Positions 1,358 to 11,900 of a stretch of 17,104 nucleotides of DNA are shown in pieces (the stretch's first letter is position 1; every line of letters starts with the position of its first letter). The position numbers were made by a program, and so were the translations under genes. Origin of the DNA: a virus (lineage: Duplodnaviria > Heunggongvirae > Uroviricota > Caudoviricetes); the IMG/VR virus record IMGVR_UViG_2534681701_000012; one strand, given 5' to 3'. Under the pieces are notes generated by a model, which saw nothing but the letters and a program-made list of their open reading frames with translations, searched no databases and had not been told where the DNA came from.

Positions 1358-1421
1358 GGGCGTCGTTCGCTAATCATGGTCGCCGCCACTATAGCTGGTG
1401 GGCAACGACCGGGGTTGAACA

Positions 1422-3365
1422 TTAAAAATCAGCCTGACTCGGGATCAGTTTTTGCCAGATAACTGAAACGTATTTTGCCTGGTAACGGGCGTCATCAAGT
1501 GCATTATGGCGCTCACCTTCGAATGGAATAGCCGTTCTGGCATCGAAGTCTATGGCTTTCCCCAGCTCAACGATTGTGCGTACATCGCGATCGTTGTAGT
1601 AACGCCACGGGCAGGGGATCCCCTGCCGTTCGTATGAACGGCGCAAAATCGTGTTGTCGAAGTTGGCTCCATTTCCCCAAACCTGAACAAAAAATTCACC
1701 GGAGTTTTCGTCGATAAATTCCCGCAATTGTAACAGTGCATCATCTAACGGGATTTCATCGGTCATAATGGCAGATTGCGCTTCGCGTGATTGCTTAAGC
1801 CACCATTTAATGGTGTCCCGATCAATGACTCCGCCAGCAGTTTCCAGATCGATAGTCTTACTAAATTCCGGTCCCATATCTCCGGTTTGCGGATCGAAAA
1901 ATATTGCACCTATTGAGATGATCGGGGCATCAGGATTTTTTCCCATGGTTTCAAGGTCGATCATTAGATGGTCACACGTCCTGCTGGTGGATGTGATTTC
2001 TTGATGACCGTTCACCTTAATTGAGTGATCTGCCGTCTCGCCAGTTTCATTATCGCTATCGTGATGCTGATTGCCGTCAGTGTTCTCCTTGTGTGGATGT
2101 TCAGCGCCTTCCATTTCCTCCGGATCATCTTCCTGAACTTCAACCTGATACTCTTCATCGAATGTTTCCTGGTATGTTGCGTCGCCCATCACCGCGCCAC
2201 AATCAGGGCAGTTGCCGCCGCCGGTCTGACCGCAGGCGGTGCAGACTTTTTCCACTTCCTGTTGCGCCACTGGTTCAGGCTGTTTCGTTTCTGGCTCGTT
2301 TTGTAACGCATTTGGGCTGTTTTGTTCCGCTTTCTGGCCGTTCTGTTCCGTTTCTTGCTGGTTCTGATTCACTGAATCGCGGGTTTCAATCCCCTTCACC
2401 CATTTCGGATCATTCGGGTCGCTAATCCCTGCAACAAATTCACCACGTGATACAGCAAGCAACTTATTGGCGTCAGGCTGGCTGATATTGGCTGCCTGCA
2501 TAATTTTGTTTACTTCGTCAGCGGTAACTTTTACCGGCTCTGGTTGTGCGATCGTGTCAGATGCACCAGTATTTTGTTGTGAACCTGAGTACGTGCCGTT
2601 TTTACGTGCGAAGTATTCCTCTTTTGTGATTTCCGTAGCTCCCAGGGCCAGTGCTTTTTCCAGACCAGAAAGTTTGTTTGCGCGACCGTATTTTTCGCCG
2701 TCCTTATCGGTGAAAAGGAAGTAGAACGGTCCCTCACGCTCTACAGATGGTTCGTCTTCCACTTCGCATTCGGTTTTTTCGTTGTCCGGCATTGCCGTTT
2801 CCACTGCATCAGTTTCTGGTACTGGTGACGGGAGAGTACCAGCTGTGCCCTGATTTGTTCCTTCGTCATCTTCAAACACGCCCTTGGTAGTCAGGTATTC
2901 AGTGATGTATTTGTTCAGTGCTACGGGATCTTTGTGAATGTCGATCGGACGCTCACGGACAAGGCCAAAAATAGTCTGACGGTCGTAGCGAACGGCATCG
3001 GGTTGTTTGCGCATTGATGCGGAAATGCGCTTCCAGTCTTCGCGATCTTTGTCGATAACTTCATTTTTTGCCCAGCGATGGATGCTGCCGTCAATGTTTC
3101 CGGTATCAATATCGCCAGGCCAGAGAGCGTAGGCCAGTTCTTCATCCAGCGTTTTCCATGTCTGCTTGTATTCGCGACAAATGGCGGCAGTGACTGGGTT
3201 GATTTTTCCTGCTGAGTTTTCAGTGTTCTGTTGATTGACTCTGGCGCTGGCGAGATCAACAACAGACGTGTATTTTCCAGTCTCTTTGCGCTCTGCGTCC
3301 TGCCGTTTTTTCCAGTTACTTTTTCCAGTTACGTAATTCAGCCTGAATTTCGGGCCATTTGGCAC
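1422..3365 (-). CDS. Putative 3'-5' exonuclease (DnaQ/DEDDh domain at C-terminus) with zinc-ribbon and acidic linker
   Basis: 647-aa ORF. C-terminal ~190 aa carry Exo I/II/III motifs (MIDLETMG, WGNGANFD, HNALDDARY). Central CTACGQTGGGNCPDCG is a CxxC...CxxC motif. Long D/E/Q-rich low-complexity middle region. The 5' end overlaps the upstream ORF by 50 nt. Confidence 0.8.
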   Translation of the reverse strand: MPNGPKFRLNYVTGKSNWKKRQDAERKETGKYTSVVDLASARVNQQNTENSAGKINPVTAAICREYKQTWKTLDEELAYALWPGDIDTGNIDGSIHRWAKNEVIDKDREDWKRISASMRKQPDAVRYDRQTIFGLVRERPIDIHKDPVALNKYITEYLTTKGVFEDDEGTNQGTAGTLPSPVPETDAVETAMPDNEKTECEVEDEPSVEREGPFYFLFTDKDGEKYGRANKLSGLEKALALGATEITKEEYFARKNGTYSGSQQNTGASDTIAQPEPVKVTADEVNKIMQAANISQPDANKLLAVSRGEFVAGISDPNDPKWVKGIETRDSVNQNQQETEQNGQKAEQNSPNALQNEPETKQPEPVAQQEVEKVCTACGQTGGGNCPDCGAVMGDATYQETFDEEYQVEVQEDDPEEMEGAEHPHKENTDGNQHHDSDNETGETADHSIKVNGHQEITSTSRTCDHLMIDLETMGKNPDAPIISIGAIFFDPQTGDMGPEFSKTIDLETAGGVIDRDTIKWWLKQSREAQSAIMTDEIPLDDALLQLREFIDENSGEFFVQVWGNGANFDNTILRRSYERQGIPCPWRYYNDRDVRTIVELGKAIDFDARTAIPFEGERHNALDDARYQAKYVSVIWQKLIPSQADF

Positions 3366-3909
3366 CCGGATTACATTTGTGTTTAACCCATCCGATAGCG
3401 AACAGTTTGCGTTCCGGATACATAGCGTTAATTTCAGGCGTTTTCATCAGTGCTTCAACGATATGCCCGTCAAAGGTAGCAACGTCTTCCTGCAGTAATT
3501 CCTGCGCGTCAATCGCCATATCAACGGTGATGTTTTCACATGTACCGAACTTAACCAGGACCGCGTTCTGTACTTCAAGGGACAGCTTGTCAAAATTGAC
3601 GTTCATCGGATCGGATTCTGGTTCGACCGGAATAAAGGAAGCGGATTCCTCATCCCAGCGGTTTTCCTGCATATATTCAGCATCCCAGGAATCGAGGGCA
3701 GGGCGGGGTATACCGGGTTTATCCTCGCAAACAAGAAATTTATAAGCGCAGTCCTGAGCAGCCGGATAATGTTCCAGGAATTGCCAGTGAAATTTTGCGC
3801 GGGCGCGACGTTCATCACCGGCTTCAATGGCAGTGGCTACAGCGACGGCACCTTCTTCCTTTATTGCCTGTTCGTCCGGAATGGCGGCGCAAATAAAGAC
3901 TTTACTCAT
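3316..3909 (-). CDS. Hypothetical prophage early-left protein
   Basis: 197-aa ORF in the leftward operon between ydfD-like and the exonuclease, co-directional, with normal codon composition. No family recognised from sequence. Confidence 0.6.
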   Translation of the reverse strand: MSKVFICAAIPDEQAIKEEGAVAVATAIEAGDERRARAKFHWQFLEHYPAAQDCAYKFLVCEDKPGIPRPALDSWDAEYMQENRWDEESASFIPVEPESDPMNVNFDKLSLEVQNAVLVKFGTCENITVDMAIDAQELLQEDVATFDGHIVEALMKTPEINAMYPERKLFAIGWVKHKCNPGAKWPEIQAELRNWKK

Positions 3910-4004: not shown

Positions 4005-4193
4005 TTATCCAGCCGGTGTTTCGTTATTCAGGTACAGCGATACTTTTTTTAGCGGGAGGCATTCACCAGAAATTTTTTGCTCGTCTCTTGCCTGGAGGCA
4101 GGATTCTTTACTTGCATAAATTCCGGTAATCACATTCTGTGATTCACCCGTTATAAGAAAAACCGTCATCATCAGTGCAAATGCTGAAGTCAT
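4005..4193 (-). CDS. ydfD: YdfD-like small protein with hydrophobic N-terminus
   Basis: 62-aa ORF whose ATG overlaps the dicB stop (ATGA). N-terminal MTSAFALMMTVFLITGE is signal/TM-like. Position directly after dicB matches ydfD of the Qin prophage. Confidence 0.6.
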   Translation of the reverse strand: MTSAFALMMTVFLITGESQNVITGIYASKESCLQARDEQKISGECLPLKKVSLYLNNETPAG

Positions 4194-4378
4194 TGACGTT
4201 CTCCGAAAATACCAAGTTCAAGAAGAGCAATTCGGGAAAGTATGGAATTATCATTGAGCAGATAAGGCTCATATTTCCTCATATTAATGGCATCTTCAGT
4301 AAACTCCCGGTTACTGAGCAGAACACCAATATCAAAACAACCTTCAGACGTATTAACGTTTGGTAATAACGTTTCCAT
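4190..4378 (-). CDS. dicB: DicB-like cell-division inhibitor
   Basis: 62-aa ORF; N-terminus METLLPNVNTSEGCFDIGV...FTEDAIN closely matches my recollection of E. coli DicB (MKTLLPNVNTSEGCFEIGV...FTEDAIN). Lies downstream of the DicF-like element, as in the Qin dicB operon. Confidence 0.8.
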   Translation of the reverse strand: METLLPNVNTSEGCFDIGVLLSNREFTEDAINMRKYEPYLLNDNSILSRIALLELGIFGERQ

Positions 4379-4556
4379 TATCGCGTCCTCAACAATGAAT
4401 TTTGTGATGCAGTGCCTGGTGCCTCCAGGTGACGTTAACCAGTTAACAATTAACGCCGGATTAGTTGATGCTCGTTACGCCCGTAAAATACCGCCTTACT
4501 GCTTTAACTGTTCCGCGTGCGCATAGCCGCATTCACCGCATCACAAAATTCACTTT

Positions 4557-4596
4557 AAAAAGGGCGGATATCCGTTTCCGCCGAATCACCAGAAAA
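4557..4596 (-). ncRNA. dicF: DicF-like small RNA (short variant) ending in an intrinsic terminator
   Basis: Minus strand reads UUUCUGGUGAUUCGGCGGAAACGGAUAUCCGCCCUUUUU. The 5' UUUCUGGUGA and 3' CCGCCCUUUUU match the ends of K-12 DicF as I recall it. 6-bp stem GGCGGA/UCCGCC with an 8-nt loop plus U-run. The following sequence toward dicB also looks like the K-12 dicF-dicB spacer. Ends approximate. Confidence 0.6.
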
Positions 4597-4897
4597 GTGA
4601 TAACAGAGGGCGTTGCTGCGGGGTTGTCACTTAAGCGTATGGTCAACCTGACAACCCGGTGTCCTCAGCGGGGAAGGAATAACCCCGCCATACTTACCGC
4701 CGCGCCATTTCGCGGATTGCCACAACCGGAAGCGCACGGTCGAATTAAATTTAACGACTACCTACAGAGAGACGAACTTCGCCGTGCGCTTTCGCGTTAT
4801 GCCCTGACTTTTCAGGGATATATCCTTTTCAGTAAACTGTCAGTGCCGGATTCTTATCCGTGTCCGGCGCACGCACTCTACCTCACCTGTGAATAAA

Positions 4898-5272
4898 TTA
4901 ATGATTAATTGATATTTTGTTGTTTGATTCAACTTTCCCATCGGATGTGTGATGCTTTAAATCACAGGAATTAATACTGCTTGCTGTAAAATGATTTTCA
5001 AGGGGAGCTATTCGAATCCCTTTCTTTTTCATTAACAAGCCAAATCCTTTATTAAGGATGTCCATTAATTCCAGGAAGTATTTTTCATGTAAATCCTGGT
5101 TATCAGAGAGCTGATTCTCTTCGCACAGACCGATAAAGGCACGACGCACGTTACCGGATATAGTATCGATGGTTTCTTTTTCTACGGTACTCAGGTCAAG
5201 AGTCGCCGGTTGGGAACGAACTATATTCGCTGCCATTTCCTGGAATTGCATTGGTAAATCTTTAAATTCCAT
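4898..5272 (-). CDS. Hypothetical protein inserted between ydfC-like and dicF-like
   Basis: 124-aa ORF with GAGG Shine-Dalgarno 7 nt upstream of the ATG, starting 22 nt after the ydfC-like stop. The 3' third is AT-rich (about 4900-5060). No recognisable motif. Confidence 0.6.
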   Translation of the reverse strand: MEFKDLPMQFQEMAANIVRSQPATLDLSTVEKETIDTISGNVRRAFIGLCEENQLSDNQDLHEKYFLELMDILNKGFGLLMKKKGIRIAPLENHFTASSINSCDLKHHTSDGKVESNNKISINH

Positions 5273-5294: not shown

Positions 5295-5513
5295 TTAACG
5301 CGGGTATGTAATCATTCTGGCAATGCTTAATGCCGCTGCTTTTTCCAGATTAGTGATATCCTGCTCCAGAGCGGACAGATTTTCAGCCTGCTTAGCCCTG
5401 GCTTCATTGGCCCATTTCAGATCCTGCGCTGCATTAATTTTCTGGTGCATCCACTCATAAAGTTCATCATCGGTATAGTCTGGCGCGATGATGACGGGTT
5501 CTCGTTTCTGCAT
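5295..5513 (-). CDS. ydfC: YdfC-like small protein
   Basis: 72-aa ORF third in the leftward operon; size and position match ydfC of the Qin dicB operon. Predicted coiled-coil-like sequence. Confidence 0.65.
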   Translation of the reverse strand: MQKREPVIIAPDYTDDELYEWMHQKINAAQDLKWANEARAKQAENLSALEQDITNLEKAAALSIARMITYPR

Positions 5514-5542
5514 ACTGATTCCTCGCGGTGCTGTTTCGCTTA

Positions 5543-5671
5543 TCAGCCGTTAGATTTTGCCGAACTGGAAAGCGCCTGTTTAAATTCGTTGAAGCTGAGA
5601 GCTTCTTCGCCTTCGGCAAGACCTTCGAAGTATTCTTCGTAAGCCTTTTCCATGATTGTGTCGAAATCCAT
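5543..5671 (-). CDS. ydfB: YdfB-like 42-aa protein
   Basis: Hand translation gives MDFDTIMEKAYEEYFEGLAEGEEALSFNEFKQALSSSAKSNG; it is below the ORF-track size cut-off. ATG lies 1 nt after the ydfA-like stop. Length and sequence match my recollection of YdfB. Confidence 0.6.
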   Translation of the reverse strand: MDFDTIMEKAYEEYFEGLAEGEEALSFNEFKQALSSSAKSNG

Positions 5672-5672
5672 A

Positions 5673-5828
5673 TCACTCACCTGAGTTTCTTTCCAGCCAG
5701 CGACGGGCACCATTTTCGGTTTTAAACGTTTTGCTTTTGGTATACGTCATCGCGGTGAATGTGCCCTCCTGGTTGGGAAACACGCCGTACACCAGAGATT
5801 CGTTGTTGCCAAGCTCGATAGTATCCAT
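5673..5828 (-). CDS. ydfA: YdfA-like 51-aa protein
   Basis: Hand translation gives MDTIELGNNESLVYGVFPNQEGTFTAMTYTKSKTFKTENGARRWLERNSGE; below the ORF-track cut-off. First gene of the leftward operon after the repressor, as in Qin. Confidence 0.65.
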   Translation of the reverse strand: MDTIELGNNESLVYGVFPNQEGTFTAMTYTKSKTFKTENGARRWLERNSGE

Positions 5829-6024
5829 GCTGACCTCATTTCCCCTTAACGCCGGGTGGCGGAACTAAAACCTACAGCGCCGTGCTGTTCTTGATAGAGA
5901 TATTAGTAACGCGGATATTTTAAGTCAACAGTATGGCGTATGATATTTTTGATTTGGTAACTATGTAAATGTTTTTTCAAGGGAAAAATATTAGTTATAC
6001 AGCTGATTTGCAGAAGTTATGGCA

Positions 6025-6081: not shown

Positions 6082-6543
6082 CTACTGGTTACGTTTCTTT
6101 AGTGCCAGCATGTTCTCGAAGGCTTCCTCGTAGAGCTTGTTTAGTCCACGTAGCTGGTTAAGGAGTTTGGCTTTTTCTGACGCAGGTAGAATCTCGAAGA
6201 GGTTAAGTAACTCTGCCTGTTCTTCATTGACCAGCCTCCATCCTTTGCCTGAAAAGTTATCATCATAAGTATCTGATGATCTTACATAATTCATTAAGTC
6301 TTTAAGGTCTTCTCGAATGTCCTCTGGTTTTACCTTTAACAGAGCCGCAAATTTTAGCGCAGCGTCGGTATTTACCGGTATCTTGCCGTTCAGATACTGG
6401 CTAACGGTGCCTTGAGATTCGAATCCCAACAACTCAGCCGCCAGCTCTTGAGTCAGCTTCAGCTCTTTTTTTCTTGCATTCCATGCGGCTTTTAAATTCT
6501 TGCTCGCTTCTGGAGTTGCAATCACTTCGCGTGTTTTTTTCAT
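6082..6543 (-). CDS. CI/DicA/RacR-like HTH repressor (XRE family)
   Basis: 153-aa ORF with HTH LTQELAAELLGFESQGTVSQYLNG, transcribed divergently from a Cro-like gene across a 100-bp AT-rich intergenic region. Confidence 0.85.
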   Translation of the reverse strand: MKKTREVIATPEASKNLKAAWNARKKELKLTQELAAELLGFESQGTVSQYLNGKIPVNTDAALKFAALLKVKPEDIREDLKDLMNYVRSSDTYDDNFSGKGWRLVNEEQAELLNLFEILPASEKAKLLNQLRGLNKLYEEAFENMLALKKRNQ

Positions 6544-6644: not shown

Positions 6645-6926
6645 TTGGCTATGAACTTAAGAGACTATTTAAAAGAGAAACATATCACCCAGCTACAGTT
6701 TGGGAAGCTAACGGGTTTATCTCAGGTGCATGTAAGTCGAGTGCTGGGGGGCTATGAAAGATTCAGCCCTGAAAAAGCATTACGTGTTGCTGAAGTAACG
6801 AATTTCGAGGTTACACCTCATGAACTCCGGCCTGATATTTACCCGAATCCAACCGACGGCTTACCTGTTGGATTCAAGGCTAACACACCAAATGCATCGG
6901 AGTTGATTCATGAAAATCAGGCATGA
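6645..6926 (+). CDS. ydaS: Cro/YdaS-like HTH protein
   Basis: 93-aa ORF with HTH LQFGKLTGLSQVHVSRVLGG, first gene of the rightward operon, overlapping the next gene start. Resembles Rac YdaS. Confidence 0.75.
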   Translation: MAMNLRDYLKEKHITQLQFGKLTGLSQVHVSRVLGGYERFSPEKALRVAEVTNFEVTPHELRPDIYPNPTDGLPVGFKANTPNASELIHENQA

Positions 6927-11485: not shown

Positions 11486-11744
11486 ATACAGCGAACGCTA
11501 TTGGTTTAGTTGGATATTTACTGTGCCGGACAAAAACGGTTTGCAGGGAAATCTTAGTTAAGTAGAATGACTGTGGGTGCTTGAGGCTATCTGTCTCAGG
11601 CATGAACACCAAAAGGCAGATAGAGAAAAGCCCCAGTTAACATTACGCGTCCGGCAAGACGCTTAACATTAATCTGAGGCCATATCTATGCTCTACACAC
11701 GTAGGTTAGCCTCTTACGTGCCGAAAGGCAAGGAGAAGCAGGCT

Positions 11745-11900
11745 ATGAAGCAGCAAAAGGCGATGCTAATCGCCCTGATCGTCATCTGTTTAACCGTCAT
11801 AGTGACGGCACTGGTAACGAGGAAAGACCTCTGCGAGGTACGAATCCGAACCGGCCAGACGGAGGTCGCTGTCTTCACAGCTTACGAACCTGAGGAGTAA
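11745..11900 (+). CDS. hok: Hok/Gef-family membrane toxin (HokD/RelF-like)
   Basis: 51-aa product MKQQKAMLIALIVICLTVIVTALVTRKDLCEVRIRTGQTEVAVFTAYEPEE has the Hok signature (TM helix, RK..LCE.R, EV..F.AYE). AGGAG Shine-Dalgarno 9 nt upstream. Confidence 0.85.
   Translation: MKQQKAMLIALIVICLTVIVTALVTRKDLCEVRIRTGQTEVAVFTAYEPEE

Follow-up and report, generated by a model that had tools for sequence, protein, structure and literature searches.

A natural short dicF allele without the ftsZ-pairing hairpin in an ompW-integrated lambdoid prophage

Introduction

DicF is a textbook prophage small RNA (sRNA), and its defining activity is the repression of the cell-division gene ftsZ. It depends on Hfq and blocks ftsZ translation as an antisense at the ribosome-binding site. 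The question raised by the locus described here is what such an RNA may be, and what it may still do, when the part that pairs with ftsZ is missing from a place that otherwise resembles dicF. The locus lies in a 17,104-nt sequence of a Caudoviricetes virus (IMG/VR record IMGVR_UViG_2534681701_000012), and we refer to this whole stretch as the window. An earlier note, made from the sequence without database searches, had described a DicF-like element with conserved ends, a different interior and a reduced length at positions 4557-4596, and these coordinates proved correct.

The biology of DicF in Escherichia coli K-12 provides the frame for the comparison. DicF derives from a polycistronic dicBp transcript (PMC10448788 and a review). 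The 5′ end of its 190-nt precursor is made by RNase III and that of the 53-nt form by RNase E (PMC10448788), and its 3′ end is made by intrinsic termination or, for a 72-nt form, by RNase III (review). Mutational work maps the pairing with ftsZ to the 3′ region of DicF and the pairing with xylR to its 5′ end, and mutants of either region no longer repress pykA (PMC5069750); the pairing with manX also maps to the 3′ end (PMC5861419).

Identity and Structure of the Element

The element is on the minus strand and reads T-TTTCTGGTGATTCGGCGGAAACGGATATCCGCCC-TTTTT from 4596 to 4557. We aligned the region around it (window 4380-4720, minus strand) with the dicF region of the K-12 Qin prophage, with that of phage Tritos, in which DicF is annotated, and with one copy from O157:H7. 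The flanks, over about 125 nt on the upstream side and about 65 nt on the downstream side, are so similar to those of K-12 Qin and Tritos, being almost identical, that the presence of the element at the dicF place represents positional homology and not chance. Nucleotide 1 of the core was set at 4595 by homology with the 5′ end of K-12 DicF, and the core is then 34 nt long compared to 53 nt for DicF (NC_000913.3 annotation, b1574), which agrees with the K-12 length and the shortening given in the earlier note. The parts of the element are as follows.

4562-4595, minus strand: short dicF allele core, 34 nt, UUUCUGGUGAUUCGGCGGAAACGGAUAUCCGCCC (sequence, alignment to K-12 and Tritos dicF, K-12 dicF coordinates)
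4583-4595, minus strand: predicted single-stranded 5′ tail, nt 1-13, in which nt 1-10 are those of DicF and nt 11-13 differ (MFE and centroid folds, alignment)
4563-4582, minus strand: terminator hairpin GGCGGA/UCCGCC, 6 bp, five of them G-C, with the 8-nt loop AACGGAUA (terminator scan, fold)
4557-4561, minus strand: U5 run of the intrinsic terminator, as in K-12 DicF (alignment, terminator scan)

What the short allele keeps of DicF itself is nt 1-10 (UUUCUGGUGA), the GC-rich terminator stem with its GGCGG/CCGCC base, and the U5 run, and it shares with the Qin locus as a whole the slot, the leader, the downstream element and the hairpin over the RNase E site. It differs from K-12 DicF in being 19 nt shorter, and the difference lies between GGUGA and CCGCCC, where the 37 nt of K-12 (nt 11-47) are replaced by 18 largely different and unrelated-looking nt, the K-12 interior CGTTTGGCGGTATCAGTTTTACTCCGTGACTGCTCTG becoming TTCGGCGGAAACGGATAT. 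The alignment with Qin and Tritos is therefore exactly what had been described, namely a shortened DicF with conserved ends and a different interior. Within the DicF 5′ region that is used for pairing with xylR and pykA, UUUCUGGUGAC(G/A)UUU, nt 1-10 of the short allele are identical and nt 11-15 differ. The allele-specific junction is GGUGAUUCGGCGGAAAUGGAUAUCC, and the stretch across which it can be read is GGUGAUUCGGCGGAAA.

The Rfam covariance model for DicF (RF00039, gathering score 48 bits) finds no match in the window at its gathering threshold, nor at E ≤ 10 on the 501-nt slice 4350-4850, and it likewise misses the O157 short copy; the positive controls from K-12 and Tritos score 76.7 and 72.5 bits, respectively. 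The consensus structure of RF00039 is one interrupted hairpin with helices of 7 and 4 bp and an 11-nt loop, and K-12 DicF also folds into one interrupted hairpin with a 7-bp basal and a 4-5-bp apical helix. The earlier description of the short form as having one stem-loop instead of two is thus mistaken in its view of canonical DicF, which has a single hairpin. In the short allele the 6-bp hairpin stands where DicF has a 37-nt interrupted hairpin bearing the ftsZ-pairing sequence, and both the apical helix and the CUCC-containing loop of DicF are missing. Judged by position, 5′ end and terminator the element is a dicF allele; judged by the Rfam model and by the hairpin that pairs with ftsZ, it falls outside the canonical form.

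The predicted mature short RNA consists of 13 unpaired nt, the 6-bp hairpin and the U5 tail, with a fold energy of −10.7 kcal/mol versus −15.9 kcal/mol for K-12 DicF, and it folds no better than shuffled sequences (z about −1). In the predicted fold it has the layout of the Hfq-type class of terminator-derived sRNAs, with an accessible seed, a Rho-independent hairpin and a U-tail. The plus strand lacks a T-run after the hairpin, and therefore the terminator is unidirectional.

Operon and Prophage Context

The short element sits in the dicF slot between ydfC and dicB, in the ydfABC-dicF-dicB layout of K-12, and the prophage is lambdoid. From upstream to downstream, its surroundings are as follows.

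6082-6543, minus strand: HTH repressor gene (HTH_3; Pfam)
5900-5969, minus strand: two sigma-70-like promoter matches between the HTH repressor gene and ydfA (consensus matches only)
5295-5828, minus strand: upstream ydfA (DUF1391), ydfB-like and ydfC-like ORFs (ORF list, Pfam, RefSeq annotation of relatives)
4898-5272, minus strand: extra ORF of 124 aa between ydfC and the element, with no Pfam match (ORF list, Pfam)
4596-4732, minus strand: structured upstream leader, nearly identical to that of K-12 (alignment, fold)
4585-4601, minus strand: precursor hairpin AUCACU/GGUGAU, 6 bp, spanning the expected RNase E 5′-processing site (folds)
4396-4552, minus strand: conserved structured element between terminator and dicB (fold, Rfam, conservation also in kil-linked loci)
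4190-4378, minus strand: dicB, 62 aa, directly downstream of the element (Pfam DicB, 125.5 bits, full length)

The two sigma-70-like sites are candidates, as sequence matches, for the promoter equivalent to pL/dicBp. DicB of the window is 63% identical to K-12 DicB, dicB is annotated in the near-identical records, and the genes that follow it in the order of transcription are those for a DUF1482 protein and a RecE-like exonuclease, then xis and int. Near-identical prophages with the same gene annotation adjoin ompW in strains 510016 and 025542-1, and the element is a natural short dicF allele that belongs to the early-left operon (dicBp/pL-type) of a lambdoid prophage integrated at ompW. Nothing is annotated at the element in these two relatives, and this carries no weight because canonical dicF is also unannotated in most RefSeq records. 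A plus-strand ORF that overlaps the element (4465-4896) has no Pfam match and is unannotated in the same relatives.

Several other features of the prophage were apparent. The 124-aa ORF is absent from K-12 Qin and is annotated as hypothetical in 510016, and strain 025542-1 likewise has a hypothetical CDS at this position. The gene for the RecE-like exonuclease (window 1422-3909, minus strand) has a 13-nt insertion near 3332 relative to the intact 824-aa CDS of 025542-1, which leaves two separate ORFs, of 197 and 647 aa, and is probably the mark of a pseudogene or a sequence error. On the plus strand (11575-11750) there is a full-length match to the sok antitoxin RNA (Rfam RF01794, 117.1 bits), and a close relative has an annotated hokD at the corresponding position; the prophage therefore contains a hok/sok type I toxin-antitoxin locus.

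Processing Features

The leader at 4596-4732, whose upper boundary (4732) is set from K-12 lengths, is the counterpart of the 5′ part of the 190-nt RNase III-generated precursor of K-12 (PMC10448788). The hairpin over the RNase E site folds with 8 bp in K-12 and lies at the same place as the 6-bp hairpin of the short locus, in which a C at −2 (4597) makes a C-G pair in all 43 short copies; the same position is an A in 118 of 120 canonical copies. Downstream, the structured element lies shortly before the dicB ribosome-binding site, and the 19-bp long-range duplex that closes it (4552-4534 with 4414-4396) is predicted by folding and is likely an RNase III substrate. The sequence features that match those of DicF processing are all present at the short allele, by analogy with an enzymology that is known from K-12 only. 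At the expected RNase E site the purine at −2 is replaced by the C, and the site lies at a stem-loop junction, so the 5′ end may differ or processing may be poor.

The leader itself varies. In most of the IMG/VR short copies (loci L130-L162) the first leader hairpin (window 4640-4700, minus strand) is replaced, with GCGGGG...CCCCGC giving way to CUGGGGC...GCUCCAG. The sequence is a different one and a hairpin is still possible, which suggests that the structure of the leader is maintained.

Target Pairing

The 3′ region of DicF that has been mapped to ftsZ and manX is absent from the short allele, and the segment predicted to pair with the Shine-Dalgarno region of pykA is also missing. Pairing energies were obtained from a loop-limited duplex calculation. 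Unrestricted RNAduplex-type folding was dropped, as it gave long, large-looped duplexes for every pair, and an accessibility-weighted interaction search was set aside, as it did not recover the validated K-12 sites. With the ftsZ ribosome-binding site (−28 to +12), K-12 DicF forms a duplex of −21.1 kcal/mol with 31 bp and the short allele one of −6.7 kcal/mol with 13 scattered pairs. The corresponding values for pykA are −27.4 and −9.6 kcal/mol, and at the validated xylR site (+10 to +20) they are −14.9 kcal/mol with 11 contiguous bp and −7.7 kcal/mol with 7 bp. By hybrid energy, the validated pairing of K-12 DicF with ftsZ cannot be told from that of shuffled RNAs (z = −0.4), and because of this the argument for the loss of ftsZ regulation rests on the missing mapped nucleotides. 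The suggestion in the earlier note that altered pairing regions might change the target spectrum is supported by these missing ftsZ and manX nucleotides and by the weaker predicted duplexes, and the short allele is no known form of DicF in which the ftsZ-pairing region is intact, as the Rfam model misses it while detecting the K-12 and Tritos controls.

An RNA that has its 5′ end and terminator in common with DicF might still be its full equivalent and repress ftsZ by an alternative pairing, for which the terminator CCGCC and the GGCGG repeats inside the ftsZ ORF would be suitable partners. This CCGCC is, however, buried in the terminator stem, the CUCC loop that serves as an anti-Shine-Dalgarno sequence is missing, and the best duplex at the ftsZ translation-initiation region, with its 13 scattered pairs, is weaker than those of all 60 shuffles of the short RNA, as is also the case with manX. 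We therefore consider full equivalence to be very improbable.

The pairing of the short RNA with xylR might take place elsewhere. An alternative site over the Shine-Dalgarno region (−30 to −8) gives −20.7 kcal/mol, mostly through nucleotides of the terminator stem, and the free 5′ tail (nt 1-13) alone gives −10.4 kcal/mol, a value matched by 1 of 100 shuffles. This predicted site is a weak pairing lead for the short RNA.

Distribution and Variation

The short form was searched for with a 63-nt query specific to it in 5426 complete E. coli genomes, and every match had a coverage of at least 80%. It is present in 442 of them at 528 places, and canonical dicF is found at 6702 places in 3975 of the complete genomes. 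Those listed with the short form are mostly O157:H7. In addition, 40 IMG/VR contigs contain it, and the E. albertii type strain has a copy identical to that of the window. A set of 43 short copies falls into three main sub-alleles, which differ at a C/U in the loop and a C/A at the base after the stem, and two singletons; the copies of O157:H7 strains have a single loop substitution, C to U. At least three flank haplotypes carry the allele; they are considerably different from one another in the upstream hairpin and the spacer before dicB, and across them the 34-nt core is almost invariant. That the window is identical to no record in the collection, with a best match of 98.9% over 88%, could point to a sequencing or assembly artefact or to a deletion private to one genome, a reading already refuted by the occurrence of the same sequence in complete genomes, viral contigs and E. 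albertii and in three sub-alleles, and to which we give practically no credence. The short allele is circulating and recombining, and is neither an artefact nor a private deletion. The low diversity of the core is not proof of selection, because the oversampling of O157:H7 inflates the genome count; recent spread and heavy sampling of O157:H7 could explain it instead.

The numbers of copies per genome bear on what has been counted before. EHEC O157:H7 has four DicF orthologues (Melson and Kendall, 2019, as cited in PMC6832061 and PMC10448788), which reside in the same genomes and in the same kind of prophage dicBF-type loci as the short allele. There are four canonical places and one short place in O157:H7 strain Gim1-1 and five places in O157:H7 strain ECP17-46 (with a flank-containing query), and strain 510016 has no dicF-type locus other than the short allele. 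Judging from these copy counts, the short locus of O157:H7 is probably a fifth one and not among the four that were counted. In the literature searched, the short-allele sequence is printed in no paper and we found no description of it; the analysis of DicF conservation in PMC5069750 considered only copies that were >99% identical. The short form at the dicF place is common, including in O157:H7.

The spread of the short allele is established within Escherichia and Shigella only, as the pattern used to scan genome contigs was too loose; most of its 120 matches were chance matches in unrelated phyla, and seven real dicF loci were recovered. A canonical-type dicF with E. coli-like flanks was seen in a contig (JAGZPX010000007.1) of a MAG assigned by GTDB to ‘Veillonella parvula’, and this contig is most likely a binning contaminant.

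Other Occupants of the Slot

A close parallel to the short allele outside dicF itself is KilS (b4833), a 98-nt RNA in the kilR 5′ UTR of the K-12 Rac prophage that is present in Hfq RIL-seq data, that has been confirmed by northern blotting, and for which a promoter of its own was reported as possible (KilS paper). Like the short allele, KilS has a hairpin and U-run with a GGCGG...CCGCC stem base, and it adjoins the same conserved structured element that precedes a small FtsZ-inhibitor gene. Unlike the short allele, it has another 5′ lead that lacks UUUCUGGUGA, a long hairpin, and a position upstream of kilR and not of dicB. An alignment of the two shows nothing in common beyond the stem base, the U-run and the downstream element, and the gene that follows the short allele is dicB. 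KilS (Rac, 1406-1503, minus strand, of locus L321) is a positional homologue of DicF, and the paper that describes it never mentions DicF.

The Rfam model for STnc100 (RF02076) aligns through its positions 21-154 to the structured element that separates the short dicF terminator from dicB, with a sub-threshold 31 bits versus a gathering score of 47, and this likeness belongs to the neighbouring element and not to the short dicF. The same structured element is also present ahead of the kil gene of Stx phage 75/02 and the kilR genes of Rac-SA53 and K-12 Rac (loci L284, L285 and, for K-12 Rac, 1240-1405 on the minus strand of L321). It has the look of a leader common to small FtsZ-inhibitor genes.

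A survey of the slot in IMG/VR that was anchored on this downstream element instead of on DicF (loci L287-L320) revealed no fewer than eight distinct hairpin cassettes, along with several 5′ leads. They include a 51-nt ‘third’ DicF allele, GGCGGCAUCUGUUUGCCCAUGAACUGAUGUCCGCC, and a reciprocal form in which the DicF loop stands on a compensated stem, GGUGG/CCACC, behind a 5′ lead that is not that of DicF. From these sequences the seed and the hairpin at the dicF/kilS slot appear to recombine independently. The short allele has the only minimal hairpin among the cassettes seen, all others being at least 35 nt. By eye, it could have originated from an apical deletion of a hairpin of the 75/02 type (GGCGGA...TCCGCC) or from a deletion and inversion of the canonical hairpin. 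The long hairpins upstream of kil in 75/02 (L284, about 1460-1520) and in Rac (L285, about 1455-1510) give −23.7 and −20.3 kcal/mol with the same ftsZ window on which K-12 DicF gives −21.1 kcal/mol, and these values lie within the shuffle background, so they are a lead only.

Discussion

We propose that the locus yields a seed-plus-terminator RNA from which the ftsZ antisense activity has been lost, a reading that we consider probable on the basis of the sequence features described above. Upon derepression of the prophage, the operon transcript would end at the short hairpin or read through into dicB. RNase E would cut the transcript at the conserved UUUCUGG or close to it and so generate an RNA of approximately 34-39 nt, made up of the 13-nt single-stranded seed and an Hfq-type terminator, or a species about 19 nt longer if RNase III makes the 3′ end. 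Such an RNA would be unable to act as an ftsZ antisense and hence division inhibition by the prophage would be left to DicB alone. Any regulation in trans would have to use the 10-13 nt of the shared 5′ seed, and would thus be confined to part of the DicF regulon, in a narrowed or shifted form. KilS, which is Hfq-associated and has the same position in Rac with another 5′ lead, serves by analogy as a prior for an sRNA at this slot. At 34-39 nt, with a 6-bp stem (predicted −10.7 kcal/mol) and five U's, the RNA would be unusually small and may be unstable.

Alternatively, the short allele might be a decayed dicF that acts only in cis, as a terminator or attenuator and processing site that sets transcription into dicB, with no functional trans-acting RNA produced. 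The terminator hairpin is the sole intact structural module of the element, and since every other cassette at the slot is long, the short one resembles an apical deletion. The parts that pair with ftsZ and manX are gone together with the predicted pykA segment, the xylR duplex is reduced to 7 bp, and the fold energy is indistinguishable from that of shuffles. A bare terminator, however, would have no need of the 10-nt seed, the leader and the RNase E-site hairpin with its pair-creating substitution in all 43 copies, all of which are kept, and the core, near-invariant on three recombinant flank backgrounds and in E. albertii, speaks against decay. That an Hfq-associated sRNA comes from the same slot in the case of KilS, even with a different 5′ lead, also argues against it. 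A purely cis-acting element is the main alternative and in our view the less probable one.

The seed-plus-terminator RNA that we favor would have wider meaning if it were functional. More speculatively, it may represent a ‘seed-only’ DicF that regulates mRNAs and does not block division, that is carried by approximately 8% of complete E. coli genomes, that forms a fifth locus in O157:H7 (as seen in one genome), and that occupies a modular slot; we put this fuller picture forward tentatively. Should the RNA not be made, or be inert, the short form is a common degenerate allele and nothing more. The allele has lost precisely the ftsZ module and has kept the seed and the processing context, which shows that the two pairing regions of DicF are separable in nature and makes it a ready-made natural control for dissecting DicF regulons. 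Annotation by homology (the Rfam model) and the copy numbers in the literature probably miss part of the dicF-type loci of pathogens such as O157:H7. If the fuller picture is true, the short allele is a natural separation-of-function variant of DicF. The allele could then also contribute to phenotypes that are attributed to the four canonical EHEC copies or that persist after their deletion. The slot before dicB and kil would, in the same case, be a modular site for sRNA cassettes at which leads and hairpins are swapped independently, with DicF, KilS and the short allele as its members.
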